64,000 nt of DNA, from NCBI GenBank assembly GCA_963716175.1, contig OY970296.1:160001-224000 (forward strand). The letters run 5' to 3'. Source of the DNA: an uncultured Armatimonadetes bacterium (GTDB lineage: Bacteria; Armatimonadota; Hebobacteria; Hebobacterales; Hebobacteraceae). The notes beneath the pieces are model-generated. The model did not search any database. It saw nothing but the letters and a program-made list of their open reading frames with translations, and was not told where the DNA came from. Made by a program: the position numbers and the translations under genes. Of this stretch, positions 8,981 through 52,238 are shown in pieces. Every line of letters begins with the position of its first letter. Positions within the stretch are counted from its first letter, which is position 1.

Positions 8981-9992
8981 CTACTGGAAGCCGAATACGT
9001 AACCGGCGCCGCGGAGCTTCCCGCCGCTTGGGTCCCAGGACCGCGGGGCGTTGGCGATGATGGCATCGGCCGCCATCCAGGCCGCGTGGCCATCCCCGAA
9101 GCCCAGGTTGCTGCCGCCCATGTGCCTGGTGAACGGCTTGCGGGTGGTGCTGTCGGTCCACCAGCTCCCGTTCAGCTTGGCCTCCTCGGCGACGCCACAG
9201 CTCTCGCCCTCCTCGCAGGTGGCCGCGCAGCACCCCGGCTCGCCGCCGCAATCGGGAAAGCACCTTTCTGGGAAGGCGATCAGACTGACCATCCAGACAT
9301 CAACCTGGGCCCCGCCGTCGCCGCACACCACAAACCAGGCGGGATCGTCAATCTGGGAGGTCTTCAGGTCATAGTTGGTGGTGGTGGCGATGCTCTGGTC
9401 GAAGGCCCCCGTCTCCCCTCCCGACTGCTTCTGCTGCCCGATGGAGTCGGTGACCGAGCCGCCCCAGCCAGGCGGCCAGGCGAAGCAGCAGGGGCCGCCA
9501 GGGCAGGTGGTGCTGGCCCCTGGGCCCCATTGGCCCTGAGTGGACACCAGGTACCCGAACCAGTCGGGGCCCGGGACGATCCAGCGCGTACCGTGAGTCA
9601 TTTCGCGCGCTTGGGCACCGCCACACATCCCGGTTTTTCACATACTCGTCCAGGATCACCGGCCAGCCCAGATATGGGTTGGGATGGGCGAGATTGTCCT
9701 GAAGGCAGCCGACGACAACCTCCGGCGGCGTGCCGCTCCCTGGTCCGGTGTCGAAGTAGGCGAGCACCTCGGCACGGTGCTCGCTGGGCGGGAAGGCGTC
9801 GTAGTCGCCAAGGTACAACTGCAGCGCCATGGCGATGTTCTTCACATTGGACAGGCACTGAATCTTGCGGGCCAACTCGCGCGCCCGCGCGAACACGGGA
9901 AACAGCATTGCCGCCAGGATCGCGATAATAGCGATCACCACCAGCAGCTCGATGAGGGTGAACCCCAATCTGCTTCGGCCTCGAGACATCAT
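8981..9992 (-). CDS. Prepilin-type N-terminal cleavage / H-X9-DG (DUF1559-like) protein 1; frameshift near 9602
   Basis: [25 protein letters not shown] in ORF 9369..10016 and [14 protein letters not shown] in ORF 8981..9628. Removing one base from the T3 run at 9601-9603 gives [16 protein letters not shown], collinear with paralog 2. Confidence 0.88.
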
Positions 9993-10079
9993 CTTGGGCC
10001 TCCTGTCTCTCTCCAAGCATCACCGTCTGTCAGTTCGGACAACAGGACAAGGCACGAGGGGGAGTGATCGGGCTTTCCT

Positions 10080-10088
10080 TCACCTCCT
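10080..10088 (-). promoter_or_regulatory. Start-less upstream SD (AGGAGGTGA) in leader of pilin-like gene 1
   Basis: Perfect anti-SD complement with no start codon at SD spacing. The same feature occurs in the other three pilin-like leaders. Confidence 0.55.
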
Positions 10089-10240
10089 CTCATTCGAAGC
10101 GGGCGTGCCCAGGCTTGATCGCCCACAGATGTGAGTATAGCCGGAACCCGCCCAGGAATCATTGCCAAAGCGCCCCTGTTAACCGCCCGTGGAACCGGCA
10201 TGAACGGCTTCCAGGCTCGTGCGGTGAATCCTTGTCCTCT

Positions 10241-10344
10241 CTAATGATGTTCGCACAACGAAGTACTGTGCGAACATCGCCCTGTGCCTGTCTGGGCCGC
10301 TTCTTGAGCTTCGCCGTGTTACTTCGTTCGGCGAAGCTCCTTAG
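10241..10344 (-). repeat. Repeat family A copy 2
   Basis: Reverse-complement copy of 1776..1879, same length, few substitutions. Confidence 0.9.
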
Positions 10345-10500
10345 ATGTGACGCGACTCCCAAGATAGGCCATTCTTGTAACTTCAAGATGAGACAGGCCA
10401 GCAGGCGAGTCTTGGGTGGGCCATGGGAGCGAAGAACCGCAGGCTGACGGAAGCCCAACCTGTCCCTGGCCATGCCACTGGCGAACCCGGTGACGATGGG

Positions 10501-11544
10501 TCACTTGGCAGGAGGGATGAGCGCGTCGCGAAGGGGCTCTACCCACTTGCCTGCGTCGATATTGTAGACGACAAAGTCGTCGTCGAATTGCCAGTAGGCC
10601 CAGCTCCAGCCGTGCGACTCGGCCAGCCGGGCGACGAACGAGGTCCACCGCACGCGCGAATCCATGTCGGCCCGGTCATAGGCGCCGAACTCACCCAAGA
10701 AAACCGGTCTCTTGTGCTGCTTCGCCCACTCCTGCGCGGCCAGGAAATCGTGCTCGATCGCGCTCCGCTCGGACTCCGTCGCGTTCCACTCGTAGCCGAC
10801 GTCTTCCCCGCGGCCTTCAAAGGCCGCCCCCTGGTGGGTGAAAGTGAAGGGCTCGTAGTAGTGAACCGTGACGATGATGTCGCGATCATCCTCCGGCAGG
10901 ATGAACTCCCCCAGCTTCTTGATCGAGTTCCACTCGCCGGGCCCGATGATGACCGTCCGCCGCGGGTTCGACTCGCGTACGATGGCCAACGCCTCGACGA
11001 GATAGGGGTTCCACATCTCCGGCGTCAGGGCACGGTTGGGCTCGTTCAGCAACTCGAACAGGACCGTGTCAGGCGCGCTGGAATAACGCTTGGCCATCTG
11101 TCGCCAGAAAGCCAACCACTTCGGCTTCAGCCCCTCTGGATCCCGCGCCATGGCGTTGTACTCGTGGCAATCGAGGATCACCATCAGGCTGTTGGCCAGG
11201 GCGCGCTCCAGCGCCCAGTCGAGCATCGCGAACCATCCCCCCTCCACCCGGTAGCCCTCCCCGGCGTCGGCCATGCGCTCGAAGGGGTGCAGCGCGATGC
11301 GCACGTGCGAGAAGCCCGCCTGCCTGATCAGCCGGAAGTGCTCGTCCTGCATCCTGCGCTGGTCCGGAGCCGACCATCCTGGGTCATACCCGAAGACGTT
11401 CACGCCTCGTCCCAACCGTTCGTTCTGAGCGAAGACGTCCATCTCTCTCCCCCGCGGTCCGAGTGGCTGTCCGCCTCTCCCTGTCTCGCTACAAGCGGCA
11501 AGCATAGCACAGAGCGCGAGCGCTGTCCATCGAGTCGCCTTCAT
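10501..11544 (-). CDS. GH5 endoglucanase/mannanase-like lipoprotein
   Basis: Lipobox LAAC; LGRGVN, GFSHVRI, FELLNEP (acid/base), VHYYEP, FLGEFG (nucleophile) and WAYW. Resembles Thermotoga Cel5A-type enzymes. Confidence 0.92.
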   Translation of the reverse strand: MKATRWTALALCAMLAACSETGRGGQPLGPRGREMDVFAQNERLGRGVNVFGYDPGWSAPDQRRMQDEHFRLIRQAGFSHVRIALHPFERMADAGEGYRVEGGWFAMLDWALERALANSLMVILDCHEYNAMARDPEGLKPKWLAFWRQMAKRYSSAPDTVLFELLNEPNRALTPEMWNPYLVEALAIVRESNPRRTVIIGPGEWNSIKKLGEFILPEDDRDIIVTVHYYEPFTFTHQGAAFEGRGEDVGYEWNATESERSAIEHDFLAAQEWAKQHKRPVFLGEFGAYDRADMDSRVRWTSFVARLAESHGWSWAYWQFDDDFVVYNIDAGKWVEPLRDALIPPAK

Positions 11545-11817
11545 CTTCGACTCCCTCGCCTACTCGCCGAGCGCGTTCTGGTAGAGCCTGCGTGTGTTAA
11601 GTGGCCTTGGGACACTTGCGGAACCGGTGCTGCCCAATAACTCATTGACGCGCCCCGGGAGGGATGAGCGCCGGTTCGACGATGGGGTGATGGATCACGA
11701 AGGGGAGCGACTCGGCCCTGTCGCCAGGGGCAATGGTGACGATCAGAGGGCCTGAGCGCGCGAGTGAGGGCGCCGGTAGCGATGCATGCCCCGGCGTTCC
11801 CGGGTGACCTTCCCGCG

Positions 11818-13779
11818 CTACTGGCCCAGTAGCGCGTGCGATAACACCGTCCCAGCTACACTGACGCAGGCATCGCCCACGATCAAGCCCAGGAAGAACG
11901 GGAGCGCCCGCTGGTGCGCACGGAGGCCCCCGTATCTCAGGAGCGACGCCTTGATCACCCAGGTAAGGGTGATCGCTGGCAGCAGCGCATCGACGGCCCA
12001 GCTGAAGGCCAGTGGAAATGCCATGGGGTGAAGTGGGAAGATTGGGATTCGCAGTTTCAGGTTCATCAGTGCCAGTGCGATCACCGCGCCGATGCCGATG
12101 CCGATGGTGCCGCTCCAGTTGGGCCCACCGGGGTCGCGCAACCAGGTGGCGAGCTTGTTCGACATGTCACTGCAGATGGCGAGCAGGTCGGCTGGGCTCT
12201 TCGCGGCCATGCCGAACTGGTAGCCGATATGCACGCTGGCCCAGAAGTAGCATAGCATGATGAGGGGGACCGCGAGCATGATGGCCCAGGTGAAGTGGCT
12301 CGCCCTTACCACACCGCGCTCGGCGATGCGCAGTCCTTCGAGTTGGATCGGCGCAGGGTTTGCCTCCTGCTCGAACATGAAGGGGCGCAGTATTGCGATC
12401 ATCCCAAGTCCGCGCGGCCCGATGGCGCGCGTCCCAGGGAACTGGGTGAGCACGAACTCCGGCATGGTGCCGAACATCCAGTGCGCCGGCGGCCCGATCT
12501 GGGCGCGCATGCGCACGATCGCCATGATCATGGTGAAGTGAAGGAAGAGAAACGCGGCAGTGATGGGCGCCGCCATGCCAGCACGACCGTAGCACCACCA
12601 GAGAAAGCCAAGCCCGGCGACCAAGCCCAGGAGCGCGGTCCGATAGCTGAACCCTTCCTCACGGTCATCGAGCGAGGATCGCAATCCCAGCGCTCTCCGG
12701 ACCACCTGCGCCAAGTAGCGCCGATCCAGCCAAGCGACCGAGGCCATCAGGGCGAGATAGGCGCCGACGTTCTGCTGGTCGCCGTAGGGGAAGCCGCCCC
12801 AGGGGCTGACGAGCCACCCTCCCATGCGGCTGAGCATGTACTCCGCTTTCCAGAACAGGTTGAAGACGATGAGGGAAAAGGCGAAATCGAGCGGCATGAG
12901 GTAGCACAACCCGATCGACCATGGTCCCCAGTATAGCTCGACTCCCCGGATGGCATCCCACGGTGGGTTGTTGGAAAGAAGGTTCTCTATCTCGACGGCC
13001 GTCGGGATGACCGGAGCCGCCGGGACAAACGCGTGCAGAATGCCGAGGGTGCCGATCCCGGCCGAGATACCGATTCCCAGCCACCAGAGGCGGTCTCGGA
13101 ACAGCCTCCCGCTCGGGTCGGTCAGATGGAGAGGCACGGTGGTCATGGGGAAGGCGAGCTTCTCCTCGCCCGACCAGCGGCGGCGGACGATAACGCTCAG
13201 GCAGAGCGTGACCCACAGCGTTGCCGAAACCCACCCCGTCCACCAGAGCGCGGGCATCAGCCACGCGCGCAGCACCTCCAACCGGTAGGCGGTACTGCCG
13301 CCAAGGACGAACCCCTCCAGCGCGGCGCGGTCTGTCACCACCATTCCGGGTGGCAGGTTCGGCCACATCATCTCCGCCCAGCCGTTGCCCGGTGTCGCCG
13401 CCCAAATCGGGTAGGTGATGGCCGCGGGGAGTGAACCGCCCCACTGCCAGATCCCCCCGGTGATGCTCATGCAGGTGGCGAGAACGAGGTAGATGGTGAT
13501 CAGCTCTCCAGCGGAGAACGCCCATGCGGGCTTCCAGCGCCGGAGGAGAGCGTTGGCCGCCGTGAAGGCAGCGAGCATACCCACCGCGAAGCTGTTCAGA
13601 GACTGCGCCGCGCCGTTACCGCCCTCTATCCAGTCGCCCCAGACCGCGAACAGCGTCACTGCCGGCACCAGCAGCACCACCGCGACGACTGCCCGCAAGC
13701 GGAGAGGAGGGCGCCGGTCGGCCGCAGCAACCAGCCTGGGTGGCGTGCGCTCACCCGTGTCGGGCGAGACAGGCCTCAA
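11818..13779 (-). CDS. DUF6785/DUF6784-like permease, paralog 2
   Basis: 653-aa polytopic protein with RRRWSGEEKLAFP, GFPYGDQQ, NPAPIQLE, FPLHP and LLRYGGLR. SD GGGGAGG upstream. Confidence 0.8.
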   Translation of the reverse strand: MRPVSPDTGERTPPRLVAAADRRPPLRLRAVVAVVLLVPAVTLFAVWGDWIEGGNGAAQSLNSFAVGMLAAFTAANALLRRWKPAWAFSAGELITIYLVLATCMSITGGIWQWGGSLPAAITYPIWAATPGNGWAEMMWPNLPPGMVVTDRAALEGFVLGGSTAYRLEVLRAWLMPALWWTGWVSATLWVTLCLSVIVRRRWSGEEKLAFPMTTVPLHLTDPSGRLFRDRLWWLGIGISAGIGTLGILHAFVPAAPVIPTAVEIENLLSNNPPWDAIRGVELYWGPWSIGLCYLMPLDFAFSLIVFNLFWKAEYMLSRMGGWLVSPWGGFPYGDQQNVGAYLALMASVAWLDRRYLAQVVRRALGLRSSLDDREEGFSYRTALLGLVAGLGFLWWCYGRAGMAAPITAAFLFLHFTMIMAIVRMRAQIGPPAHWMFGTMPEFVLTQFPGTRAIGPRGLGMIAILRPFMFEQEANPAPIQLEGLRIAERGVVRASHFTWAIMLAVPLIMLCYFWASVHIGYQFGMAAKSPADLLAICSDMSNKLATWLRDPGGPNWSGTIGIGIGAVIALALMNLKLRIPIFPLHPMAFPLAFSWAVDALLPAITLTWVIKASLLRYGGLRAHQRALPFFLGLIVGDACVSVAGTVLSHALLGQ

Positions 13780-13846
13780 CGTAATGGTTCCTCCCCTGTA
13801 ACAGGGACGCGTCGCCGGCGAGAGTTGCCGCTGGCAGTGCGCCGGC

Positions 13847-14908
13847 CTACTCCAGTGGCTCGGCCTGCAGCTCCCGCCCCTCCCGCACCGCCTGCTGGCA
13901 CAGCAGGGTCAGGTAGTGGTCCTGGCAGGCCTCGGCGAGGGGATAGAACTCCCGGCTCGTGCGCACGTACTCGTCCATCCTCACCAAACAGGCGGCGATC
14001 GCGATCTCGTCGTCGGAGAGAGGCGCAGGTGCGAAGGGGTTAGTGTAGAGCCACTCGCCTCCTGCCTGGATGCCCCTCAGGTAGAAGCCCTCGAGGTTGC
14101 CGTTGGCGCCGGTGGTGTCTCGGCGAAGGTCGAGCGCGATGGGGGTGTGGAAGTCCTTGAGATAGTAGACCGTGTCATTGACGATCTCACCTCGCTCGCC
14201 CCGGATCAGCACGCGGCGGCTGCGGATCCAGCCGAAGTACTGATCGCCGGTGAAGTCGAGAAGACCGAGGCGGTCACCCCAATCGAAGAAGACGATATCC
14301 TGCTCCGAGTCTCTGATCTGCTCCTGGGCGGGCGGGCCCTGCCGCCCGGCCCCGGCAACGATGGGCGCGGCGAAACGTCTGCCGCTGATCTTGGGCATCT
14401 CGAATCCAATGCCCAGGAATCTCCGGATCAAACTGATCCCGTGATAGCCGTGGGCCACTGAGATTTGCGCCTGAGTCGGCCGTCCCAACAGTCCCTGCTC
14501 AATCACCGCCGAGCAGGCCTGATGGTGGGGCTGGGCCCAGTATTGCTCCGCGACCTGGATCTTCGCGCCCTTCCGTGTCAGGGCAGTGACCTCTCGGAGC
14601 TGCTCCAGATCGGGCGCAGGCGGGGTCTCCGAGAGGATGGGCATCCCTCGCTGGGAGAGCTCCTTCAGCAGCACGGGATTGCTTGTCCAGCTCACGGAGG
14701 TTACCACAAACGACGGCGATGTCTTGAGCAGTTCCTCGCTGTCCGCGCACACGCGCACCCCCCAGGCCTGCTCTAGGGGCCCGCGCTTCTCGGGGTTGCG
14801 CACGACTACACCGGTGATGCGGAAACGCGCGGGCAAGGCCCGGGCGATGCGCAGGTAGAACTCGGTGCGCCATCCCGCTCCGACGATGCCGAATTCGATC
14901 GGTCTCAC
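13847..14908 (-). CDS. Gfo/Idh/MocA family oxidoreductase
   Basis: Rossmann motif GIVGAGWR, ETPP (EKP variant) and VAEQY. Confidence 0.85.
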   Translation of the reverse strand: MRPIEFGIVGAGWRTEFYLRIARALPARFRITGVVVRNPEKRGPLEQAWGVRVCADSEELLKTSPSFVVTSVSWTSNPVLLKELSQRGMPILSETPPAPDLEQLREVTALTRKGAKIQVAEQYWAQPHHQACSAVIEQGLLGRPTQAQISVAHGYHGISLIRRFLGIGFEMPKISGRRFAAPIVAGAGRQGPPAQEQIRDSEQDIVFFDWGDRLGLLDFTGDQYFGWIRSRRVLIRGERGEIVNDTVYYLKDFHTPIALDLRRDTTGANGNLEGFYLRGIQAGGEWLYTNPFAPAPLSDDEIAIAACLVRMDEYVRTSREFYPLAEACQDHYLTLLCQQAVREGRELQAEPLE

Positions 14909-14920
14909 GTCTGCCCTCCA

Positions 14921-15988
14921 TCAACGCAGCTTCGGAAGATTCCGCCCATCACGGCCGCCGCCCCTTCCAGAATACGGCTTGCCCGGCTCCCAGTTGTTCG
15001 CCGCGGGCGGGGTGAAGCGTGCCAGCGGCAGCTCCACTTGGCACTGGTGCTTGCAGGACAGGTAGGCCGCCTCACACATCTCCAGGGCAGCCAGCGAGCT
15101 CTCCGGGATGGCATAGTCGGTGCTCCCCTCATCCATCTGTCGGGCCATCGCCTCCAGATGATCCCGGTGCCCCTTCCCGGCCGGCCGAACATCAACCTTC
15201 TTGCCTCCCGGGTGCTGCTCGTTCAGGAGCAGGTACGCGCTCTCCCAGGCCCAGAACTCGATCATCCCCTTCGCGCCGACGATGTGGAAGACCGTGTCCT
15301 TGCCCTTTCGCGTTGTGGTGACATAGTCGCCGGTGTTCATCACGAAGCGCACGCCATTGCTCGCCTGCACATAGGTGACGGCAACCGTCTCCACCTGCAT
15401 TCCATCCCGGTAGGTCCGCGATGAGCTGTCACCGGCCGCCATCACTGACTGCGCGGCCACCGCTCCGTTGAGCATATGAGCGTAGTTGAGCCAGTGGATG
15501 CCGGCGTTGATGATGTCCCAGCCGTTACACTGGATCTCGATCAGTACCAGCTCCCCGATCTCTCCGGACCTCACCCGCGCCACGATCTCCCTCGCATGAG
15601 TCGCCACCAGCAGCCCATGCGGCACCGCCATGGGCAGCCCTCGGCTTCGGATCGCACTCAGGATCGCGGCGCCGTCCGCCGTCGTCTGCGCCAGGGGCTT
15701 CTCGACCAAGATCCCCTTCAGGGGAAGCTCCAACGCGGCCTCCGTGATCTCCCTGTGTGACGGCGCCCAAGTGGAGACGCATACGGTATCAGTGGGACAT
15801 TTCCGGAACATCGCCTCATGGCTGTCGAAAACCGCAAGGCCGGGGTAATCTCGCGCCAGCGCCTCGCGGGCGGCGGGGCTGATGTCTGCTACCGCCAGCG
15901 GCTGATAGCAGTCGGAGGCCTGGAGGGCATTGATACTCAGCCGTCCGCCCGCCCCGCCGCCGACCACACTCGCCGTGTACTGCTTCAT
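14921..15988 (-). CDS. Gfo/Idh/MocA family oxidoreductase
   Basis: VVGGGAGG, ILVEKPLA and GIH motifs; SD GGAGGTG. Confidence 0.88.
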   Translation of the reverse strand: MKQYTASVVGGGAGGRLSINALQASDCYQPLAVADISPAAREALARDYPGLAVFDSHEAMFRKCPTDTVCVSTWAPSHREITEAALELPLKGILVEKPLAQTTADGAAILSAIRSRGLPMAVPHGLLVATHAREIVARVRSGEIGELVLIEIQCNGWDIINAGIHWLNYAHMLNGAVAAQSVMAAGDSSSRTYRDGMQVETVAVTYVQASNGVRFVMNTGDYVTTTRKGKDTVFHIVGAKGMIEFWAWESAYLLLNEQHPGGKKVDVRPAGKGHRDHLEAMARQMDEGSTDYAIPESSLAALEMCEAAYLSCKHQCQVELPLARFTPPAANNWEPGKPYSGRGGGRDGRNLPKLR

Positions 15989-16416
15989 GTGACACCTCCA
16001 GGGTCTATGCCCCCTAGAACTCAGAGCCGCCTACAGCAGCCATCGCGGTCACCGACGGCGCGACGACGCTGTGTTTTCCAGACGCGGCCGGCGTTCCTTT
16101 CAGCTTCGGTGCGGCGCCTGGTGCCACTGCAATCGAGTGGGCCGTCCGTCGCATACTTTCACAGTCACCGCAGATTACACCTGGCGCTCACGGCCGAACA
16201 GCTGGTCCATGCCGGTGATAGCAGGCAGCTCCTGGCGAGCGCCAGGCCTACCGTAAGCGGTGATCCGCCACGAGTGCGGCCAGCTTCAGCAGGCCAGCCT
16301 CGAGCCCGCTTGTCGCAAGGAGCTGCGATCCGCAGAGCGAGGTGCCTGGAGCACGGCCAGGCGTGATGTCGCGCCAAGCGCGCGGATAACACCACCGGCG
16401 ACGGAAGTCAGCAGTC

Positions 16417-16444
16417 AGGCGGAGCGCCCGCGGGCGCTCCGCCT
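16417..16444. repeat. Conserved GC hairpin downstream of pilin-like gene 2
   Basis: AGGCGGAGCGCCC-GC-GGGCGCTCCGCCT. Nearly identical at 52277 and related at 21835. Confidence 0.75.
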
Positions 16445-16478
16445 CTTCGTGCTGGACTGCAGCTGCGGGGCGCGCCTC

Positions 16479-17500
16479 TCAGCACCCGCAATTCGGGTCG
16501 TCACCGGGCTGACAGTACCGGCAAAAGCAACTGTCACAGCAGGCGGTGCCTCGGAGATCGCCGAAGGTGTCCTGCTTGGCCCTCGGCCTCCCCGGGAGTT
16601 CGCGTAGATGGCGTCGGCGGCCATCCAGGCGGCGTGGCCATCCAGGAAACCCATGTTGCTGCCGCCCATGTGACGGGTGTACTGCTTCCTCAGGCTGGGG
16701 TCGCTCCAGAAGCGGACCTGCATCTCGTGGGTTAGCCCGCACTGCTGGGTGGCCGAGCAGTTCACCCAATCCGCGCCACAACTGGCATCGGCCTCGACCT
16801 TGCAGACGTCGGGGAAAGCGAGATCGGAAAGTTTCATCCACTCGGCCCTAACGCCGGCGTCGCCGGTGACGACGAACTTCGCGGCATCCGCCACCGCGCT
16901 GGGCTTGAAATCGCGATAGTAGGAGGCGGTAGTGCCTATGGTTTGCTCGAAGGCGTTGGCCACCGCCTCACTGGGACCTGCCCTCGCAAATCCCGTCCGG
17001 CCTTGCAGGGCGGAATCGGTGACGCTGCCGCCCCATCCCGACGGGAATGTATCGTCGCCTGCGAAGGCGTCACCTGCGCACGTTTCCCCGCCCGATTTCG
17101 CGACCCAGTACCCGAACCAGTCTGAGGCGGGGATGATGGCTCTTGCTCCGTTGGCGGACTTGGCGCTCGGGCAGCGCCAGACATCGCGGTTCTTGACGTA
17201 CTCGTCCAGGACCACCGGCCAGCGCAGGTAGGGGTTCTTGCCGGTGGCGCTGGGCACGCTGCCACAGAAGAAGTCGATCACCTCCTGGCGGTGCTCCTTG
17301 GGCGCCAGCCTGTCGTAGTCTGTCAGATACATCTGGAACGCCATCGCGATGTTCTTCACATTCGACAGGCACTGAATCTTGCGGGCCGACTCCCGCGCTC
17401 GCGCGAACACCGGGAACAGCATGGCAGCAAGGATCGCAATAATCGCGATCACCACTAACAGCTCGATCAGCGTGAATCCGCTGCGTCTTAGCCTTACCAT
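16479..17500 (-). CDS. DUF1559-like prepilin / H-X9-DG protein 2; probable frameshift near 16595
   Basis: [10 protein letters not shown] and [14 protein letters not shown]. The Cys-rich tail [13 protein letters not shown] in ORF 16479..16841 matches the tails of the paralogs, so the true stop is probably 16479. ATG 17500 follows SD AGGAGG. Confidence 0.88.
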
Positions 17501-17743
17501 GATGGTTTTGCCTCCTCTCAAGCTAGACCTGCGCACAGCCTCCCGCCGACAACTGCTCTGGCCTGTCTCACCTCCCTTTGCTCACTGGTCTTGCCCAAAT
17601 CCGTTACTCTTGCCTTACTTGCCACTGGCCACTTAGCCAGCCTTTGGTGCCCAGGCGAACTGCCTCCATCCGCTCCTGGCATTGCACCGCATGCAGCAGG
17701 AGGCTTCCGGGCCGCCGCTGACACGACCCCCTGGTGCTTCTTC

Positions 17744-17814
17744 ACTATACTGCTGGCCTCCTCAAAGAGGAATGCAGGATTCGGTTGATCACTTGACCTA
17801 TTCGGTTGTATACT
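17744..17814. promoter_or_regulatory. Divergent promoter region with AraC-type direct repeats
   Basis: ATTCGGTTG at 17779-17787 and 17800-17808 (21-bp period). Minus-strand -10 TATAGT (17744-17749) has a poor -35. Plus-strand TTGATC-N18-TATACT (17785-17814) points toward araC. Confidence 0.55.
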
Positions 17815-17815
17815 G

Positions 17816-18739
17816 GTGGTCAGCATCGGAACGGTAGGAGGCGGCCTCTCACATTTCCGAGGGCCGAGAACGGAGCTTCGGGTGAGTGATCCAGGCGAGC
17901 GAGAGGAGACAGGCCGAGTGGTGGTCACGGCCCTCGGCGTCCACTGGGTGCACGAGTTGGGCTACACCGTAGACCGGCCCCACGGGGTGAACGAGTATGT
18001 GCTGCTGCGGTTCTATAGCCCGATGTTGGTGCGCACTGCCGCTGGGCTGGTGCACGGGGAACCTGACGACTGCCTTCTCTACGCTCCAAGGTTCCCGCAG
18101 TGGTTCTCTGGGCGTGATGTAGGACATGCGGACGACCACATGCATATGGACGGCCCAGAGGTGCCTGAGCTCGTCAGTCGCTTCCGGTTGCCGGTGAACA
18201 GGCTCTTCCGGCCCCGCGAGGTTGACTTCATCCCGCCGATGATCACGGCGATCCGCCGAGAGCTGTACCGAAGGGAGCCGTTCTGGCAGCATTCTGTTCG
18301 GACGCTGGTTGAGACGCTGTTGCTGAGGCTCGGCCGGCTGGCGGACGAGCAGGAACGATCCGGCCTGACGCCGGCCGACCTGGCCCGCGCCGAGGTATTC
18401 CGGAGCATCCGCATGCAGGTTCACGAGCGGCTGGAGGAGCGGTGGACAGTGGCGAGCATGGCAGAGCTGGCCAATCTGAGCGTCTCTCGCTTCGGTGTGC
18501 TCTATAGGAAGCTCTTCGGCGTCAGTCCTATCGAGGATCTCATCGACGCGCGATTGGCCAGAGCGCGCGCGTTGCTGGCGAACGCAGCCCTGTCCGTTGG
18601 CGAGGCCGCGGCCGAAGCCGGCTTCAGGAACGTCTGCTACTTCAGCCGCCTGTTCCACCGTCGGGTGGGGAGCACCCCCAGAGACCACTACCGCCGCGAC
18701 CTGCCGGAACGCGACAGCACCAAGGCGGCGGGGCCGTAG
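17816..18739 (+). CDS. AraC family transcriptional regulator
   Basis: N-terminal cupin-like domain and C-terminal double HTH (WTVASMAELANLS...R...AR.LL...GF.N..YFSR.F). Start codon uncertain. Confidence 0.93.
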   Translation: MVSIGTVGGGLSHFRGPRTELRVSDPGEREETGRVVVTALGVHWVHELGYTVDRPHGVNEYVLLRFYSPMLVRTAAGLVHGEPDDCLLYAPRFPQWFSGRDVGHADDHMHMDGPEVPELVSRFRLPVNRLFRPREVDFIPPMITAIRRELYRREPFWQHSVRTLVETLLLRLGRLADEQERSGLTPADLARAEVFRSIRMQVHERLEERWTVASMAELANLSVSRFGVLYRKLFGVSPIEDLIDARLARARALLANAALSVGEAAAEAGFRNVCYFSRLFHRRVGSTPRDHYRRDLPERDSTKAAGP

Positions 18740-18906
18740 CTAGCTAGCGAAGCGGCATGCCGGTGCTGCTTGTCCGTGGCCACAGGTGAAATCGTGCGAC
18801 GCAGGATTCCAGAGGCCACGCTGAGCTGGTTTCACCAATCCAGGGCGGGTCGGTTCTGGACGCCGATGGTGGGTGAATTCCCGATGCCGACTGACAATCG
18901 CTCATG

Positions 18907-19037
18907 CTAGAAGCTGTTTCATAACCTTCCCAGGCAAGGTTATGAAACAGCACCGCACAACCTCAGGCCGCGGCCGGCGCATTTCATGCGAGGGCGTGGT
19001 GCGGCCAACCAGCAGGTAGGTTATGAAATGCGCGCTA
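18907..19037 (+). repeat. Repeat family B copy 1 (131-bp MITE-like element)
   Basis: Hairpins GCTGTTTCATAACCT...AGGTTATGAAACAGC and GCGCATTTCAT...ATGAAATGCGC, TA at both ends. Copies at 20311 and 41841. Confidence 0.9.
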
Positions 19038-19043
19038 CGTGCG

Positions 19044-19640
19044 CTAGCTCTTCTCTTGCGACTGCTTTTCCGCTAGCCAGGTATCGCGGGATGGGAGCTT
19101 GCCTTCCAACCCCTGATAGGGGGGCAATATGACTTCCGAAGGCTCGATCTTCCTCAAAGGTGGCTCTGTAAGCAGCGCGATGTTCTTTGGACCTCGGATG
19201 TCTAGTATTGCGCGTTCATGGGCAATCTGGTATTTCCGGTAAAACTCCTCGATCGACTCAACCAGTGCAATCGTTCCGAGCCTTTGCGATCTATCCCAGA
19301 AGTTGCAGCAAGGCACAAGCAGAGTGCGGGTATATAGAGCGCTCATCGCAATGGCACGGGTGGCCTGGTCTGGATGCACGCCCACTATCAGGTCATAGTA
19401 CGAGGCCTGATGCGGATCGAACTCCTCCTCTCTCCCGGGCACTCCTCTGATACGACAGCCGCGAGGGTCAACTACTTCGGCATCATAGCCAAGCCTGTTG
19501 CGAAGCAGCTTTGAAAGCATGCCCTGTCCGCCCGCAACATCGGCGATGTACTTCACCCCGCGGCCGTAGACCCGGGAGATAAGACCAGCGACTTCCGGGA
19601 ATCGCGCAGGGTCTCCGTGGAAATCGTACCTTGCACTCAT
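19044..19640 (-). CDS. SAM-dependent methyltransferase-fold protein
   Basis: Motif I ADVAGGQG, VVDPR, D.IVG.HPDQAT and VPCC. Visibly lower GC than the flanks. Confidence 0.65.
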   Translation of the reverse strand: MSARYDFHGDPARFPEVAGLISRVYGRGVKYIADVAGGQGMLSKLLRNRLGYDAEVVDPRGCRIRGVPGREEEFDPHQASYYDLIVGVHPDQATRAIAMSALYTRTLLVPCCNFWDRSQRLGTIALVESIEEFYRKYQIAHERAILDIRGPKNIALLTEPPLRKIEPSEVILPPYQGLEGKLPSRDTWLAEKQSQEKS

Positions 19641-19719
19641 CACCGCAATTCTAGCATGGATCGGAATGTGTGCGCATGTTAAGTTGGCGTGGGGCATCCA
19701 GGCTCACCTCCCACATCGC

Positions 19720-20095
19720 ACGAAGACCTAGAGCCGGCACCTGTTCGTGAGCGCCTGGAAGGGCCAACCCATCCATGGCCGCTGCATCAACCGCATGCTC
19801 AAGATCGCGATCCGCAAGGATGGCCCGGAGGGCCAAGGGATCACGCCCCACAAGCTCCGGCACACCTTCGCCACCCCACCTCATCCGCAACGGGGTGGAC
19901 ATTCGCACCGTACAGGAGCTGATGGGCCATTCCGAACTCGAGACTACAGCCAAGTACCTGCACTCGGATACGCGCACCAAGCAGGCCGCGGTGGGGAGGC
20001 TGGATGGATTGCTGGGCACCAACTCAGCGGCAGAGCCATCGCAGCCGCCGGCGATAGAGAACCACGCCGATCCACGCCATGAACCCGCCCATTAG
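19720..20095 (+). pseudogene. Tyrosine recombinase (XerC/D-like) C-terminal fragment with frameshift
   Basis: ITPHKLRHTFAT and HLIRNGVDIRTVQELMGHSELETTAKYLH are split over two frames near 19875. No N-terminal domain. Confidence 0.85.
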
Positions 20096-20290
20096 CATCA
20101 GCTTGGCCACGGCGATGAAGATCAGGTGCACCTCCGGGGATGGCCACCACGCATCTGGCATGAAGCGCAGCCTCCCCGCCATCCGAGCCACATACGCCGC
20201 CCAGCCTGCCATCAGCCAGGCCCACCAGATCAGCACCACCCAACCCAGCGAGAAGACGAGAGCATCGAGCCTCCGGTCAGCATCCTGCAT
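20024..20290 (-). CDS. Small two-TM membrane protein
   Basis: Strong SD AGAGGAGGTG before the ATG, two hydrophobic segments and a basic C-terminus. Overlaps the 3' end of the integrase remnant. Confidence 0.55.
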   Translation of the reverse strand: MQDADRRLDALVFSLGWVVLIWWAWLMAGWAAYVARMAGRLRFMPDAWWPSPEVHLIFIAVAKLMLMGGFMAWIGVVLYRRRLRWLCR

Positions 20291-20310
20291 TCTGCTTCAC
20301 CTCCTCTCAC

Positions 20311-20441
20311 TAGAGTGCATTCCATGACCTACCTGCTGGCTGGCCGCACCACGCCCTCGCATGAAATGCGCCTGCCACTGCCTGACGTTGTGCAGTGCTC
20401 TTTCATAACCTCCTCTGGGAAGGCTATGAAACAGCTTCCAA
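20311..20441 (-). repeat. Repeat family B copy 2
   Basis: Inverted, slightly degenerate copy of 18907..19037, same length. Confidence 0.88.
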
Positions 20442-20671
20442 TCATTCTAACACAGGCGGTGGCCTCCTGGCGCTGTCGGGTCAGGCCGTAGCTAGCCGCG
20501 CTCAATGCCGGCCACAGTGGGCCCAGATCGGCACTTCCGTTGTCACTTGCGGGCAATCTCTTCGCCGGCCAACACCCACAGAGTGCCTCACTGTGGATCT
20601 GACAGGCGCACAGGCGGCGAGCCCGGGGGCAGGCAGCAGATTGAGCGCATCGCCGATGGTGAAGGCCGGCG

Positions 20672-20700
20672 TTGACCGTGCTTCTGCTTAGTGCTACTAT
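20672..20700 (+). promoter_or_regulatory. Sigma70-type promoter for pilin-like gene 3
   Basis: TTGACC-N17-TACTAT with an extended -10 TG. Confidence 0.6.
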
Positions 20701-20844
20701 CGAGCCAGCGCCAGCCTTTGGGCGTCCAAACCCTAACAAGGCCAGTTGGCTTTGCGGAGGAGGAAAGGAGGTAACAGAAGGCAGTTGTCTGCAGCAGCCA
20801 TCGCAGCCTCGGCTGCGCATTCCGTCTGGTGTGGAGGCGATGTG

Positions 20845-21786
<942 letters not shown>

Positions 21787-21834
21787 TCTGGGTCAGGCGG
21801 GCCCTAAGGGTTGATCTAGTATGAGTTGACTGAG

Positions 21835-21870
21835 AGCCGTGCGGAGCGCCTACTGGAGCTCCGCACGGCT
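21835..21870. repeat. GC hairpin downstream of pilin-like gene 3
   Basis: AGCCGTGCGGAGC...GCTCCGCACGGCT, sharing the GCGGAGC/GCTCCGC core with the hairpins at 16417 and 52277. Confidence 0.65.
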
Positions 21871-27613: not shown

Positions 27614-27614
27614 C

Positions 27615-41706: not shown

Positions 41707-41739
41707 TGCGGCATCGCGAGCCAGCAGCAGGCGAAGCAC

Positions 41740-45892: not shown

Positions 45893-45945
45893 AGCTGATC
45901 CTCCTGTCCGCTGCTCTCCGGCGTGATGCCGAGATGTCACGGGCG

Positions 45946-47229: not shown

Positions 47230-47386
47230 CGCGGCTCCTTTCGGCAGTCCCACGCGCCCCGTAACCTGCATCCGCGGCTCCGCGCTCTCATCGGCCAGGC
47301 CTGCTCTGTGTAGGCCGGAGGCAGGCCGCGCTTCGATTGCCGTCATACGCACCTGCTTGACGAGACCGAGGCGTCCAACGAGGACG

Positions 47387-48214: not shown

Positions 48215-48368
48215 GGCATATCCTCTCCTTCATGGTTGCTGCAGCTGTCCGAAGGGAGCACCGGCGGCGGCCTTCAACGCCACCACTGCGAATCCCTTGG
48301 GGCGCTAGCTTCTCACGAGCGGGGCAGTCTGGATCATGGCCATGCTCTTACAGGACTCTGCCGAGGGA

Positions 48369-49244: not shown

Positions 49245-49295
49245 TGGGTAGTCTTTCCAGGCCGGCATTCCGGGAGAGTAAGCCATTGGCCACGG

Positions 49296-50954
49296 CTAGT
49301 CGAGCCCGTAGCCAAAACCGTACTTGGCGGAGACAGTCACGGGCAGCCTGCCCCGGGCCGGCACCTCGCCGAAGAGCACGCGGACCGCCGCCTCCGCCGC
49401 GCCCGCGTCGTCGGAGTACGTGGTCAGGCAGAGGGGCGCCTCCGGGAACTCGGCGATCACGTAAGGGCTGCCCAGCACGCACAGACACAGGTGCTTGCCT
49501 GCGGCCAGGACCTTCTTCGCGAACTCAACCTGCCCTCCGGCCACCTGTGCAGAGAGCAGCTTGTAGCTCTGAACCCTTGGGGCAGGGGCGAACACCACGA
49601 TCTCGCTGCCCTGTGTCGAGGCCACGGCAGCGGCGATCTGAGAGGCGTCCGGCTCTTCATCCAGGACATGAGTTCCGACCCCATCAAGGCGCGCGGCGAA
49701 CTCGCGGAAGAGCACTTCGCGGCTGCTGTACGCCATAGCGCCGAGGTCAGTCATGGGCTTGCCCTCTCCCTCCGCGCGCGTGCCAACCACGCAGACGCGG
49801 GGGCCCCGCTTCCTCAAGGGCAGCCCCTTCTTCTCGAGCAGTGTCACTGAGGACTCGAAGATGCAGCGCGCCAGAGCGACGTGCTCTGGCCGACGGAGCA
49901 CTTCCCGCGCGGTCTCGGCCGTGAGTCGCTCTCGTTCAGGAAGCCCGACCCAGGCCTTAGCCTCCAGCACCCGGAGGACGGCAGCATCCAGCAGCTCCAT
50001 GGGGATGGTTCCATCGTTCACAGCATCAAGCAAGGCCCGGAAAGATGGCATGGGCGGCTCATCATAGTCCTGCAGCAGGATGTCGTGACCGGCGCTGAAC
50101 GTCCGCACTAGGCTCTCGGCAACCGGGAAGTTGCTCTTGATCGCTCTCATCGTCAGGCTGTCGGAGACGATCAGTCCCTCGAACCCCATGTCTGTGCGGA
50201 GCAGGTCGTGGATGCATCGCCGCGAGAATGTCGCGGGGATAGTCGTGTTGCTGTCGAGGGCGGGAAACGCCAAGTGGACCGTCATCACGCCGCGCAGACC
50301 GGCGGGGATGAGGTGCCGGTACGGGTAGAGTTCGACGGCTTCCAGCCGCTCCCGGCGGTGCGGCACCGTTCCGAGCGTCCGATGGGTATCGAAGTCCGTA
50401 TCTCCATGCCCAGGGAAGTGCTTGGCATTGGGAATCACCCTCTCGGCCTGCATCCCGCGGACAACGGCCAGTGCCATCTCGGTCACCAACTCGGGCTGGT
50501 CACCAAAAGAGCGGGTGGCGATGATCGGGTTGCGGGGGTTCGTGTTCACATCGACGCAGGGCTCCCAGACGAGATCCAAACCGACTGCCTTCGACTCTCG
50601 CGCAGCAGTCCGTCCGAACTGGTAGGCGAGGTCGGTGTTTCGTGCCGCACCCAGGGCCATGGCGCTGCCCGCCCCAGGAAGAGGGGAAGTGCCCCAGTGG
50701 GGCATCTCGTGCGCCCATCCGCCGAGGAACAACACCGGAATCGGAGAGGCGCCCTGGAGAGCGTTCATGAACTCGAGTGCGGTGTCGAGCTCACTCATCC
50801 CCTGGTAGTAGAGCGGTGCGACGCAGCCCACGAGTCCCTTGCCCGCCATGGCGATGGTCTCGTCCGCCCACTTCGATGCCCGGCAGCAGATGACCTGGCC
50901 GACCTTCTCCTGCAGCGTCATTGCGGCAAAAGTACGAGAGACCCAGTCGTGCAT
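49296..50954 (-). CDS. nagZ: GH3 beta-N-acetylglucosaminidase (two-domain NagZ type)
   Basis: NagZ signature KHFPGHGDTDFDTH, DVN.NP.NP.I..RSFG, SDSL.M and a C-terminal G.LPV domain. No signal peptide. Confidence 0.9.
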   Translation of the reverse strand: MHDWVSRTFAAMTLQEKVGQVICCRASKWADETIAMAGKGLVGCVAPLYYQGMSELDTALEFMNALQGASPIPVLFLGGWAHEMPHWGTSPLPGAGSAMALGAARNTDLAYQFGRTAARESKAVGLDLVWEPCVDVNTNPRNPIIATRSFGDQPELVTEMALAVVRGMQAERVIPNAKHFPGHGDTDFDTHRTLGTVPHRRERLEAVELYPYRHLIPAGLRGVMTVHLAFPALDSNTTIPATFSRRCIHDLLRTDMGFEGLIVSDSLTMRAIKSNFPVAESLVRTFSAGHDILLQDYDEPPMPSFRALLDAVNDGTIPMELLDAAVLRVLEAKAWVGLPERERLTAETAREVLRRPEHVALARCIFESSVTLLEKKGLPLRKRGPRVCVVGTRAEGEGKPMTDLGAMAYSSREVLFREFAARLDGVGTHVLDEEPDASQIAAAVASTQGSEIVVFAPAPRVQSYKLLSAQVAGGQVEFAKKVLAAGKHLCLCVLGSPYVIAEFPEAPLCLTTYSDDAGAAEAAVRVLFGEVPARGRLPVTVSAKYGFGYGLD

Positions 50955-51242
50955 TGAGGAACCTCTCGCCAGCCGTGCTGGCAGCGGACAATATCCAGTG
51001 CGGCGTGAAGGTTAACCGCTCCGCCACGTCGTAATGCTACTTATGTGTGCATCAGCCAGACCGCCTGGATGATGATAGCACCGAGCGAGAGTGCTGTGAA
51101 GAGCTGATACGCGTCGAAGGATACCCGAGTTCCGAGCGGCCGGATTCCAGATCCAGGCGCGGAGAGGAGGTGAGAACAACCGGCGCGTAGGCCTCTCGAT
51201 TGTCTTGCAGCGCAACCGTTGGCCCGCGAGGAGGGAGACGCT

Positions 51243-52238
51243 ATGAGCGCGAGACGTAAGGGATTCACTCTGATCGAGCTGCTGGTGGTGATCGCGATCA
51301 TCGCGATTCTGGCCGCCATGCTGTTCCCCGTGTTTGCGCGGGCGCGCGAATCGGCCCGCAAGATTCAATGCCTGTCGAACGTCAAGAACATCGCCATGGC
51401 GGTGCAGATGTACTTGTCTGACTACGACCGGTTCCCACCCGGTGAGCACAATGCAAACGTCCTCCAGTGGCTCACGGACAAGCAGGGGTGCTGTGATCGA
51501 GGCATAGCTTGCCGCGCCACTCAGATGAATCCCTACCTGCGATGGCCGGTGATCCTGGACGAATATGTGAAGAACCGGGACGTGTGGCGCTGCCCGAGCG
51601 CAGCGAACTGGTTGTCGTACGGGATCAACTGGGCCTATGGGACCGGCAATTGGTTCCAATATACGGTGGATACCTGGGACACGTGCCGCCTCCAGCCGTG
51701 CTCTCGGCCTTACCCGACGGGATGGGGTGGCACCGTCACCGACTCGATCACACAAGGCGCGTGCGCGGGAGAGCCCACCGGAGGCTTGGCGCATGCCATC
51801 GGGTCTCCGGCCGGGCTGGTGGACATGAAGACCAGCCAGATGGAAGATCCTGTGAAATATGTGGTTGCCGCCGACGCCGGGCAGATGGCCGACGATCTCG
51901 AGCGCACGTCCTTCGTGGCCTACCCGGACATGTGCCGCATAGATCACGAGGCCTGTGATCCCACCTGCGGTTACGACTGGGTGAACTGCCCTGATACCCA
52001 GAACTGCGGCGGAGGGATGGGAGTCTGGCAGTGGGGCACCGACGTCCAGTACCGCAAAACGCACGGCAAGCCCCGCCACCTGGGTGGCTCGAACCTCGGG
52101 TTCGCGGACGGCCATGCCACATGGATGCCTTCCGAGGAGATCTTGTTTGATGGCCAGAATGCCTCCGGCTATGGTCATGGCCCGAACCGGATCATGAACC
52201 TGGAGTGCTGCTTTGTTGACGTGAAGCAGGGATACTGA
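51243..52238 (+). CDS. DUF1559-like prepilin / H-X9-DG protein 4
   Basis: [32 protein letters not shown] and [14 protein letters not shown]; about 15 Cys. Confidence 0.92.
   Translation: MSARRKGFTLIELLVVIAIIAILAAMLFPVFARARESARKIQCLSNVKNIAMAVQMYLSDYDRFPPGEHNANVLQWLTDKQGCCDRGIACRATQMNPYLRWPVILDEYVKNRDVWRCPSAANWLSYGINWAYGTGNWFQYTVDTWDTCRLQPCSRPYPTGWGGTVTDSITQGACAGEPTGGLAHAIGSPAGLVDMKTSQMEDPVKYVVAADAGQMADDLERTSFVAYPDMCRIDHEACDPTCGYDWVNCPDTQNCGGGMGVWQWGTDVQYRKTHGKPRHLGGSNLGFADGHATWMPSEEILFDGQNASGYGHGPNRIMNLECCFVDVKQGY

Follow-up and report, generated by a model that had tools for sequence, protein, structure and literature searches.

Why should a pilin-like gene carry in its leader a strong Shine-Dalgarno (SD) sequence that no start codon follows? 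The question was raised by four loci in a window of 64,000 nt (OY970296.1, positions 160,001-224,000; assembly GCA_963716175.1) from an uncultured wetland Armatimonadetes bacterium (lineage Hebobacteraceae, Armatimonadota), the genome of which is one 4.56-Mb contig rated as 91% complete. Throughout, "the window" denotes this whole stretch. The gene family examined consisted of pilin-like (prepilin) genes with N_methyl and DUF1559, of which the source genome has 48 paralogs. An upstream start-less SD (uSD) was present before approximately 40 of these 48 genes.

Results

Four loci in the window

All four SD-like sites described in the first-pass annotation were found at their coordinates (Table 1), each with a real SD and ATG downstream, and they were start-less as claimed: none (0/4) had an ATG, GTG or TTG 3-12 nt after its GGAGG. 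At the locus of the gene starting at 20845, a second GGAGGAGG lies immediately 5′ of the uSD, and a sigma-70-like promoter was predicted ahead of it at 20672-20700, which would place this uSD approximately 58 nt into the transcript (our own reckoning). The ortholog of the 51243 gene in a close relative (L003, G011) has kept TAAGGAGGTGAG at −79.

Table 1 Features of the four pilin-like loci (positions in the window; predicted duplexes are with the 3′ tail of 16S rRNA)
Feature	Positions	Strand	Details
uSD of gene starting 9992	10079..10091	-	g-AGAGGAGGTGAA; SD-like core AGGAGGTGA 10080-10088, 96 nt before ATG at 9992; duplex −21.6 kcal/mol
GTTGTC word	10038..10043	-	present as written
True SD AGGAGG 9999-10004 and ATG 9992-9990	9990..10004	-	second ATG next at 9989
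Pilin-like gene, N_methyl and DUF1559	9369..9992	-	207 aa; short, possibly truncated (Pfam)
uSD of gene starting 17500	17567..17579	-	a-AAGGGAGGTGAG; SD-like core GGGAGGTGA 17568-17576, 76 nt before ATG at 17500; duplex −20.3 kcal/mol
GTTGTC word	17548-17553	-	present as written
True SD GAGGAGG 17511-17517 and ATG 17500-17498	17498..17517	-	read from sequence
Pilin-like gene	16415..17500	-	361 aa (Pfam)
uSD of gene starting 20845	20763..20775	+	g-AAAGGAGGTAAC; SD-like core AAGGAGGTAA 20765-20774, 80 nt before ATG at 20845; duplex −17.7 kcal/mol
GTTGTC word	20784-20789	+	present as written
True SD GGAGG 20833-20837 and ATG 20845-20847	20833..20847	+	read from sequence
Pilin-like gene	20845..21786	+	313 aa (Pfam)
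uSD of gene starting 51243	51162..51174	+	g-AGAGGAGGTGAG; SD-like core AGGAGGTGA 51165-51173, 78 nt before ATG at 51243; duplex −22.7 kcal/mol
ATTGTC word	51199-51204	+	present as written
True SD GAGGAGGG 51228-51235 and ATG 51243-51245	51228..51245	+	read from sequence
Pilin-like gene	51243..52238	+	331 aa (Pfam)

Among the neighboring genes, a large GH42-like gene (4613-8839) lies downstream of the first pilin-like gene, and the second is followed by two GFO/IDH/MocA oxidoreductase genes and a DUF6785/DUF6784 membrane protein gene, with an AraC-type gene (17816-18739) divergent from it. A heparinase II/III-like gene (52243-54999) begins 4 nt after the fourth. When the curated covariance models of Rfam were run at gathering score, the whole window gave one tRNA and nothing else, and region 17400-21000 gave no match at E values up to 1.

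Enrichment and spacing of the uSD

The first-pass annotation had proposed comparing the frequency of start-less SDs before the family with that before unrelated genes, and the two were not similar. The sequence [AG]GGAGGT[GA] occurred at least 30 nt upstream of 35 of 43 family genes and of 50 of 2303 other genes (those with at least 60 nt of intergenic DNA, as called by our own rough gene caller). AGGAGGT was found at −150..−18 in 32/48 prepilin/DUF1559 leaders and in 22/1583 other upstream regions, and a match of at least 10/12 to AAAGGAGGTGAT was found in 24/40 family leaders and 14/1259 others. The enrichment is far beyond chance, with P-values that overstate the case because paralogs and relatives are not independent.

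The distance from the uSD to the true start is also constrained. Across 84 leaders from 19 genomes, 80 motif instances lay at −70..−120 (median −89), and none of the 84 lay closer than −70, though the scan admitted sites up to −42.

Sequence of the motif and its fit to 16S rRNA

The conserved block is 12-13 nt long, G-A-R-A-GGAGGTGA, and is complementary to the 3′ tail of the source genome's own 16S rRNA, which ends ...GGATCACCTCCTTTCT; nearly the whole free (single-stranded) tail is covered. Within −110..+72 of the motif, positions −1 to +11 were the sole conserved block. Elsewhere in that interval information content was near zero, which bears out the earlier description of the rest of the leaders as divergent, and no second conserved box was found at any fixed distance.

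Position −1 was G in 75 of 84 instances, matching the penultimate C of the 16S tail. At motif positions facing U, 65 of 73 changes were A-to-G, which keeps a G·U pair (approximately 40% expected from base composition), and at positions facing C merely 6 of 420 cells differed. Such variation fits RNA-RNA pairing that tolerates wobble. In 42 genes, the predicted duplex with the 16S tail averaged −21.1 kcal/mol at the uSD and −13.3 kcal/mol at the true SD. A start codon (ATG/GTG/TTG) followed the GGAGG of the uSD by 3-12 nt in 6 of 42 leaders, where about one-third would be expected from base composition by our own arithmetic. Some uSDs read GGAGGTGATG, approximately nine of them in the source genome (counted by eye) and most of those in motif-bearing leaders of family f12.

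The (G/A)TTGTC word, which the first-pass annotation had described as a second motif shared by the four leaders, is present at each of them (Table 1) but did not hold as a shared element: it occurred in merely 8/48 family leaders, vs. 50/1583 others, at positions ranging from −26 to −141. Part of this sharing is common ancestry, because an alignment by eye is possible between the leader of the gene starting at genome position 146434 and that of the gene starting at 177500. The word is a feature of a subset of leaders and is not counted as part of the conserved element.

Leader structure, promoters and true SDs

Predicted accessibility of the motif exceeded the leader median in 22 of 36 leaders and was not clearly above that of the rest of the leader. 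No conserved hairpin presenting the motif was found (11.0 enclosing pairs, 10.4 in shuffles), nor was structure found in the spacer between uSD and true start (z about 0). Sigma-70-like promoters were predicted at 9/12 or better in merely 6 of 36 leaders; in these, the predicted −10 box was 12-128 nt upstream of the motif, so that a position at the very 5′ end, as a strict 5′ stabilizer would have, is not evident. The true SDs of the family averaged −13.2 kcal/mol vs. −9.7 kcal/mol for others, and the predicted opening energy of −18..+6 was 11.2 kcal/mol in the family vs. 12.6 kcal/mol in 400 other genes. With strong true SDs and slightly more open predicted ribosome-binding sites, these genes look designed for high expression.

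Conservation across genomes

Beyond the source genome, 14 leaders from 13 genomes of its taxonomic family (f1) were compared, and 12 of them matched the motif at 10/12 or better. The proportion was 16/20 at 9/12 or better in G011, 8/8 in G001, 8/11 in G020 (family f5), and 9/20 at 10/12 or better in family f12. The motif thus recurs in several Armatimonadota families, and it was not found in phyla outside Armatimonadota. Both block and spacing are kept across taxonomic families, between which the proteins can be aligned just over their first ∼120 residues, with 47-54% identity.

Nuclease repertoire

The first-pass annotation had called for a check of the genome for RNase J, and none was found: the best match to TIGR00649 scored 21 bits (cut-off, 400 bits), and the RMMBL domain (PF07521) had no match in the source genome. 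Both profiles matched in most control genomes. RNase J was likewise not found in 14 same-family relatives or in families f2, f4, f5 and f12, yet in a phylum-wide sample of 61 genomes, 47 had a match above the cut-off; the motif is most abundant in families for which the search found no RNase J. Of other ribonucleases, the source genome has RNase E/G and RNase Y.

Discussion

Alternative explanations

Several explanations compete for such a sequence. The classical STAB-SD of Bacillus thuringiensis cry3A, at which a docked 30S subunit stops RNase J from degrading the message exonucleolytically in the 5′-to-3′ direction, is of the same sequence type and lies at a similar distance from the start. 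Since RNase J was not found in the source genome, in its 14 same-family relatives or in the motif-richest families, the Bacillus mechanism does not apply as such, and we regard this reading as extremely improbable and close to refuted. The earlier proposal of a conserved cis-element in pilin-like mRNAs is upheld: the motif is enriched before these genes, is conserved between genera and between taxonomic families, and varies in ways that wobble pairing allows. The RNase J1 block borrowed from Bacillus falls away.

A trans-acting regulator, either an RNA-binding protein (CsrA-like or other) or a small RNA with an anti-SD-like stretch, might switch the whole family, and a single word common to approximately 40 paralogs does resemble a regulon site. 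The CsrA-type GGA sites offered as an alternative in the first-pass annotation lost their footing when no CsrA gene (PF02599) was found in the source genome by a search that matched three control genomes. The match to the 16S tail also extends beyond GGA to 12-13 nt, including the flanking G-A-R-A and TGA, which a protein site would mimic by coincidence. Among 63 intergenic TCACCTCCYY sites inspected by eye, no free-standing anti-SD candidate was seen besides the 16S gene and the opposite strands of leaders or true SDs, and a candidate small-RNA locus had no complement of the motif; a regulator is therefore unlikely. Action at the DNA level, through an operator or an unusual promoter element common to the family, would account for the fixed orientation relative to the gene and the fairly constant position from the start codon. 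It would leave the identity with the 16S tail complement to coincidence and the A-to-G variation, which pairing with U predicts and DNA-protein contact does not, unexplained; with no second box within −110..+72 and a distance to predicted sigma-70-like promoters that varies from 12 to 128 nt, we consider it quite unlikely. The GGAGGTGATG instances would suit a reading in which the uSDs serve genuine initiation on very short upstream reading frames, which would encode leader peptides and might use unusual start codons. However, the ATG of that sequence begins 2 nt after GGAGG, within the stretch that pairs with 16S rRNA, normally spaced start codons are rare (6/42) and nothing is conserved downstream of the motif, all of which makes leader peptides very unlikely. 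There is hardly a chance, finally, that the uSD is a functionless relic copied with the gene as the family expanded: the genes are paralogs and some leaders (146434 and 177500) are still alignable, but a nearly invariant block of 12-13 nt stands between flanks that hold no information, and block and spacing persist across taxonomic families whose proteins have diverged as described.

A probable docking site for the 30S subunit

The explanation that we consider reasonably probable is that the uSD is an upstream docking site for 30S subunits, akin to STAB-SD or the uSD of Escherichia coli, that would protect the leader or feed the true start. From the sequences, we infer as most likely that 30S binds at the uSD, and likewise the direction and mechanism of the effect on expression. 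In the 5′ untranslated leader, the uSD would engage almost all of the single-stranded 3′ end of 16S rRNA; a 30S subunit would therefore dock at the site with no need of initiator tRNA, and translation would not begin. Docked about one ribosome footprint upstream of the true ribosome-binding site, which is itself strong, the subunit would increase expression of the pilin-like gene and the sugar-utilization genes that follow, by either or both of two routes. The docked subunit may shield the leader from 5′-end-dependent decay, which would here fall to RNase E/G or RNase Y, as RNase J was not found; bound ribosomes are named as obstacles to RNase E scanning in PMC9943677. It may also be kept ready to take over the true SD after the previous ribosome departs. 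Against this feeding branch, so strong a duplex might keep the 30S subunit from being released to the true SD, which pairs more weakly. Against docking as such, a purine-rich word with A/G variation could also suit a purine-binding protein.

A broader proposal, which we put forward as speculative, is that in the Armatimonadota lineages in which RNase J was not found the uSD acts as a two-subunit "loading dock" that makes the stability and translation of some 40-50 DUF1559 operon leaders depend on how many 30S subunits are free. If so, ribosome availability would be linked regulon-wide to nutrient scavenging (substrate-capture genes), and the uSD would take the role that 5′ stabilizers play against RNase J elsewhere.

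Start-less upstream SDs have been known as single cases (cry3A in Bacillus and, lately, focA and others in E. coli). Here the uSD recurs as a rule throughout an expanded gene family and has survived divergence from family to phylum level, with a sharp spacing limit and in lineages in which the textbook nuclease was not found. Each genome thus offers dozens of natural replicates for asking what a docked 30S subunit does (protection from RNase E/G or Y, subunit hand-over) and why the distance does not fall below approximately 70 nt. Annotation is affected as well: very strong uSDs should not be mistaken for gene starts by gene finders or ribosome-binding-site models.

Comparison with known systems

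CsrA-bound leaders have a pair of GGA-containing sites, of which one is at the SD. The present leaders differ in that no CsrA gene was found in the genome and conservation spans the full complement of the 16S tail.

Ribosome standby sites, described for tisB, MS2 coat and lpp (PMC6690012, PMC7708055, PMC5934652, PMC5924895), resemble the uSD in that 30S loads upstream of the start region, ∼100 nt upstream in tisB. As described there, they are unstructured stretches, not strong SDs, and serve ribosome-binding sites that are structured and sequestered. A standby site of the tisB/MS2 type was considered and rejected: the true ribosome-binding sites, with their strong SDs, are by prediction not sequestered (11.2 vs. 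12.6 kcal/mol).

The STAB-SD is described in PMC4113751 as binding 30S and stabilizing cry3A mRNA, the stable 5′ end of which, at −129, adjoins it; Agaisse and Lereclus 1996 and Mathy et al. 2007 are cited there for STAB-SD and related Bacillus polypurine 5′ stabilizers. Like the uSD, which judged by its sequence directs no initiation either, it is an SD-like sequence ∼100 nt before the start codon that complements the 3′ end of 16S rRNA and starts no translation; the uSD would, like it, hold a 30S subunit on the leader. The nuclease that STAB-SD blocks was not found here, and the uSD is common to approximately 40 paralogs per genome, is conserved across Armatimonadota families, pairs with 12-13 nt of the tail and is held 70-120 nt from the true start.

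In E. coli, the upstream site (uRBS/uSD) of focA (focA-213) is reported to bind 30S without initiator tRNA, and its mutation to cut expression ∼10-fold (Jagodnik et al. 2025, bioRxiv 10.1101/2025.04.04.647229). Like the uSD here, it is a strong SD motif that lies well upstream in the 5′ UTR (beyond −35) and lacks a functional start codon. According to that report, 30S binds it independently of the true initiation region, with a positive effect on expression; the uSD would share both properties. The E. coli sites described there are scattered single cases found experimentally, whereas the uSD of the pilin-like genes emerged from sequence comparison as a family-wide rule, is tightly spaced and complements the full tail.

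Start-less Shine-Dalgarno sequences before the pilin-like genes

The four Shine-Dalgarno (SD)-like sites that the first-pass annotation had reported upstream of pilin-like genes were found with exactly the sequences and coordinates claimed. None of the four has an ATG, GTG or TTG 3-12 nt past its GGAGG, which bears out their description as start-less, and a strong SD (the true SD) also precedes every one of the genes, 7-9 nt 5′ of its ATG. All four genes matched the N-terminal methylation motif and DUF1559/SBP_bac_10 in Pfam. They precede sugar-utilisation genes (heparinase II/III-like, two GFO/IDH/MocA oxidoreductases, a DUF6785/DUF6784 membrane protein and a GH42-like gene), and an AraC-type gene adjoins one of them. 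The gene with its ATG at 9992 has only 207 codons, compared with approximately 330 in its paralogs, and may be truncated or frameshifted; its upstream start-less SD (uSD) is still kept. Three metatranscriptome runs of the same study gave only three partial matches to window 9000-21900 (35-42 nt, 90-95% likeness), which apparently come from other organisms.

Features located in the window
Feature	Sequence	Position	Strand	Relation to gene
uSD	AGGAGGTGA	10080-10088	-	96 nt before ATG of 9992 gene
uSD	GGGAGGTGA	17568-17576	-	76 nt before ATG of 17500 gene
uSD	AAGGAGGTAA	20765-20774	+	80 nt before ATG of 20845 gene
uSD	AGGAGGTGA	51165-51173	+	78 nt before ATG of 51243 gene
Short pilin-like gene		9369-9992	-	
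Intergenic repeat		18908-19036	+	
Predicted sigma-70-like promoter		20672-20700		20845 gene
LLVVIA codons	CTGGTGGTGATCGC	51280-51292		inside a family gene

Enrichment and specificity in the source genome

The window belongs to a single 4.56-Mb contig (66% G+C), and the genome contains 48 paralogs with a near-identical N-terminus (28-residue stretch). Leaders of this family were compared with all other upstream regions in a rough gene call of our own (3728 genes). The pattern [AG]GGAGGT[GA] at least 30 nt upstream was present in 35/43 family leaders vs 50/2303 others with at least 60 nt of intergenic sequence. AGGAGGT at -150..-18 occurred in 32/48 family leaders vs 22/1583 others, and a match of at least 10/12 to AAAGGAGGTGAT in 24/40 vs 14/1259. 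When all 6- and 7-mers in family leaders were counted without bias, words of the uSD motif were strongly enriched and no others were. Therefore, start-less SDs are not similarly frequent before unrelated genes, the outcome that the first-pass annotation had named as telling against its claim. The background rate of AAAGGAGGTGAT matches in the source genome was 1.1% at ≥10/12 and 6.4% at ≥9/12.

The GTTGTC or ATTGTC hexamers, proposed as a second shared motif, are present where they had been placed in the four leaders. Genome-wide, [GA]TTGTC was found in 8/48 family leaders vs 50/1583 others, at positions from -26 to -141; it marks a subset, does not belong to the common element and is partly due to shared ancestry. 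Thus, the SD-like site is real and strongly non-random, whereas the hexamer signal is weak.

The few carriers outside the family include four SLH proteins, three secreted paralogs of unknown family, a DUF6785 transporter, a GH20 enzyme and a sulfatase. Envelope genes in general are not marked by the motif: only 3/44 SLH-domain genes carry it. A scoring scheme admitting any wobble was discarded as too permissive in a GC-rich genome. The wobble-tolerant scan was also inflated by a GGAGG word in a repeat of approximately 130 nt, of which one copy lies in the window. This repeat opens with a hairpin (TAGAAGCTGTTTCATAACCTTCCC..GGAGGTTATGAAACAGC), closes with a second one (GCGCATTTCAT..ATGAAATGCGC) and has 55 intergenic copies genome-wide on both strands; it had no Rfam match and is possibly MITE-like or, alternatively, a structured RNA.

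Complementarity to the 16S rRNA tail

When leaders were aligned on the motif, information content was approximately 0 over -110 to +72, except at positions -1 to +11 (consensus G-A-R-A-G-G-A-G-G-T-G-A). The source genome's own 16S rRNA ends ...GGATCACCTCCTTTCT, so the conserved block is the complement of UCACCUCCUUUC, which we take to be nearly the whole single-stranded tail past helix 45. The B. subtilis tail ends CCUCCUUUCU, and the E. coli tail differs at its end.

Variation among 84 motif instances from 19 genomes followed this pairing. At motif positions facing U, 73/420 cells were changed, and 65 of these 73 changes were A-to-G, which keeps a G·U pair; at positions facing C, changes occurred in 6/420 cells. 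Position -1, which faces the tail's penultimate C, was G in 75/84 instances. The uSD was predicted to form a stronger duplex with the tail than the true SD of the same genes (mean -21.1 vs -13.3 kcal/mol). A start codon at SD spacing followed the motif in 6/42 leaders, when approximately one third would be expected from base composition.

The motif started at -70 to -120 in 80/84 leaders (median -89) and never nearer than -70 (0/84), though the scan admitted sites up to -42. A 30S subunit covers roughly -35 to +19, and the limit at -70 would approximate the distance at which a 30S on the upstream site clears a 30S on the true start. The analyses of accessibility, enclosing pairs, information content and promoters, and spacing and spacer structure omit six of the 42 leaders scoring ≥9/12 (genes 1944367, 341019, 116610, 115313, 2805527 and 2814012), whose best 12-mer was other than the GGAGGT site.

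Within all family genes, the conserved CTGGTGGTGATCGC of the LLVVIA codons contains GGTGGTGATC, which agrees at 9/10 positions with the 16S tail complement and lies approximately 40 nt inside the gene. Nothing was inferred from it, because the preferred codons of a GC-rich genome would give this match by default.

Structure, promoters and other leader features

A stem presenting the motif could be drawn by eye in G020 (a relative's genome in family f5), but a conserved hairpin was rejected: enclosing pairs numbered 11.0 vs 10.4 in shuffled flanks (84 leaders). The spacer was no more structured than shuffled sequence (z -0.09 vs -0.21 in controls), no second box was found at a fixed distance within -110 to +72, and a search of the window against Rfam returned no family for the element. 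At the motif, predicted accessibility was not clearly higher than elsewhere in the leader, exceeding the leader median in 22/36 leaders. One minimum-free-energy fold (gene at 371142) paired the motif over a long range with the conserved GFTLIE codons; this was rejected, as the threonine codon is variable and the motif fits the 16S better.

Sigma-70-like promoters were predicted at ≥9/12 in only 6/36 leaders, 12-128 nt 5′ of the motif, and within the window for one gene only. Far 5′ of family genes 4334178, 3193103, 1864900 and 2618307, near their likely promoters, there are recurrent words (for example, AGGATnnTACAGGAA and TTGTACAA) that may be operators of a common transcription factor. About a dozen family leaders, none in the window, have very similar GC-rich terminator-like hairpins (GGCGCGC-n-GCGCGCC, then a T run, often TGGCC) roughly 55-90 nt 5′ of the uSD (for example, genes starting at 112952, 371142, 1867143, 4391287, 255640, 1002995 and 4325526 of the source genome, G000). 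Some of these leaders also have in common a word resembling ACCGCGnnGCTGCG between hairpin and uSD.

Distribution among relatives and nuclease content

Relatives were scored as matches out of 12 to AAAGGAGGTGAT. Families of Armatimonadota are numbered from f1, the source's own.

Leaders of pilin-like genes with a motif match in relatives and other phyla
Group	Leaders with match	Threshold or site
f1, 13 other genomes	12/14	≥10
G011 (genome of f1)	16/20	≥9
G001 (genome of f1)	8/8	≥9
G020 (genome of f5)	8/11	≥9, at -84..-100
G015 (genome of f2)	one leader	AAAGGAGGTGAA at -94
f12	3/10 and 6/10	≥10
f20	3/10	≥10
f3	0/11	≥9
f22	0/10	≥9
Phylum sample outside f1 and f5	4/32	≥10
Other phyla, prepilin-type genes (Omnitrophota, Lentisphaerota, Verrucomicrobiota, Planctomycetota, others)	2/72	≥10

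The G020 proteins could be aligned with the window's protein over the first ~120 residues only (47-54% identity). Set against the background rate, these counts indicate that the element is old, has a patchy distribution within Armatimonadota and, in some lineages, is near-universal for the DUF1559 pilin-like family.

RNase J was not found in the source genome (TIGR00649, 21 bits vs a cut-off of 400; RMMBL domain, no match), although most control genomes gave a match in each of these searches. The source genome does have RNase E/G (a 750-codon frame) and RNase Y. Searches of relatives found RNase J in none of 14 f1 genomes, nor in f2 (one genome), f4 or f5, and found it in 10/12 f3 genomes, full-length or in pieces. 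In the phylum sample, 47/61 genomes had TIGR00649 above cut-off; the other 14 were from f1, f4, f5, f12, f20 and f22, with only partial matches (39-52 bits) in f20. Therefore, the lineages in which the motif is most frequent (f1, f5 and f12) are among those in which RNase J was not found, a comparison among lineages that are not independent. A strict anticorrelation was rejected: f22 has neither, and RNase J occurs together with sporadic motifs in f15, f18 and f23.

Proposed action and known systems

The best-supported reading is that the uSD would pair with the 16S tail and dock a 30S subunit on the leader without a translation start. The first-pass annotation had proposed a cis-element that stabilises or regulates pilin-like mRNAs, with the RNase J1 block of Bacillus as the known case and CsrA-type sites as an alternative. 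Judged by gene content, the textbook RNase J mechanism is excluded in the source genome, and CsrA was not found there. The evidence weakens each of the rival readings (a trans-acting protein or small RNA, a site acting in DNA, translated leader peptides and a neutral relic), and together they hold about a third of the probability. The locus of small-RNA candidates at G000:C1:3199400-3199870, outside the window, includes the conserved N-terminal coding stretch in two sense-like copies and one antisense copy, and contains no complement of the uSD.

A 30S subunit docked through uSD-tail pairing could shield the leader from RNase E/G or RNase Y, the candidates because RNase J is missing. Alternatively, a second subunit could wait behind the initiating one, a possible parallel with lpp. 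Both the choice between these effects and even the sign of the effect on expression are what we infer.

Among the matches listed for open-access literature on DUF1559/Armatimonadetes or STAB-SD, none described the uSD element, and the STAB-SD texts concerned almost exclusively Bacillus and other Gram-positives, with mycobacteria once. According to excerpts of the cited sources, 30S binding to the cry3A STAB-SD stabilises the mRNA (PMC4113751), bound ribosomes are among the obstacles that RNase E meets as it scans from the 5′ end (PMC9943677), and a second subunit queues behind the initiating one on lpp (PMC5924895). Excerpts of a 30S-seq study likewise describe upstream SDs mapped in E. coli, among them that of focA, where 30S is bound without initiator tRNA and mutation lowers expression approximately 10-fold (bioRxiv 10.1101/2025.04.04.647229). 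Classical standby differs in its rationale, a sequestered ribosome-binding site, which is unsupported here: the true SDs of the family exceed the average in strength (-13.2 vs -9.7 kcal/mol), and opening its ribosome-binding sites is predicted to cost slightly less (11.2 vs 12.6 kcal/mol). Judged from sequence, the uSD is a variant of the start-less upstream SD elements already known, shared across the gene family and conserved within lineages.
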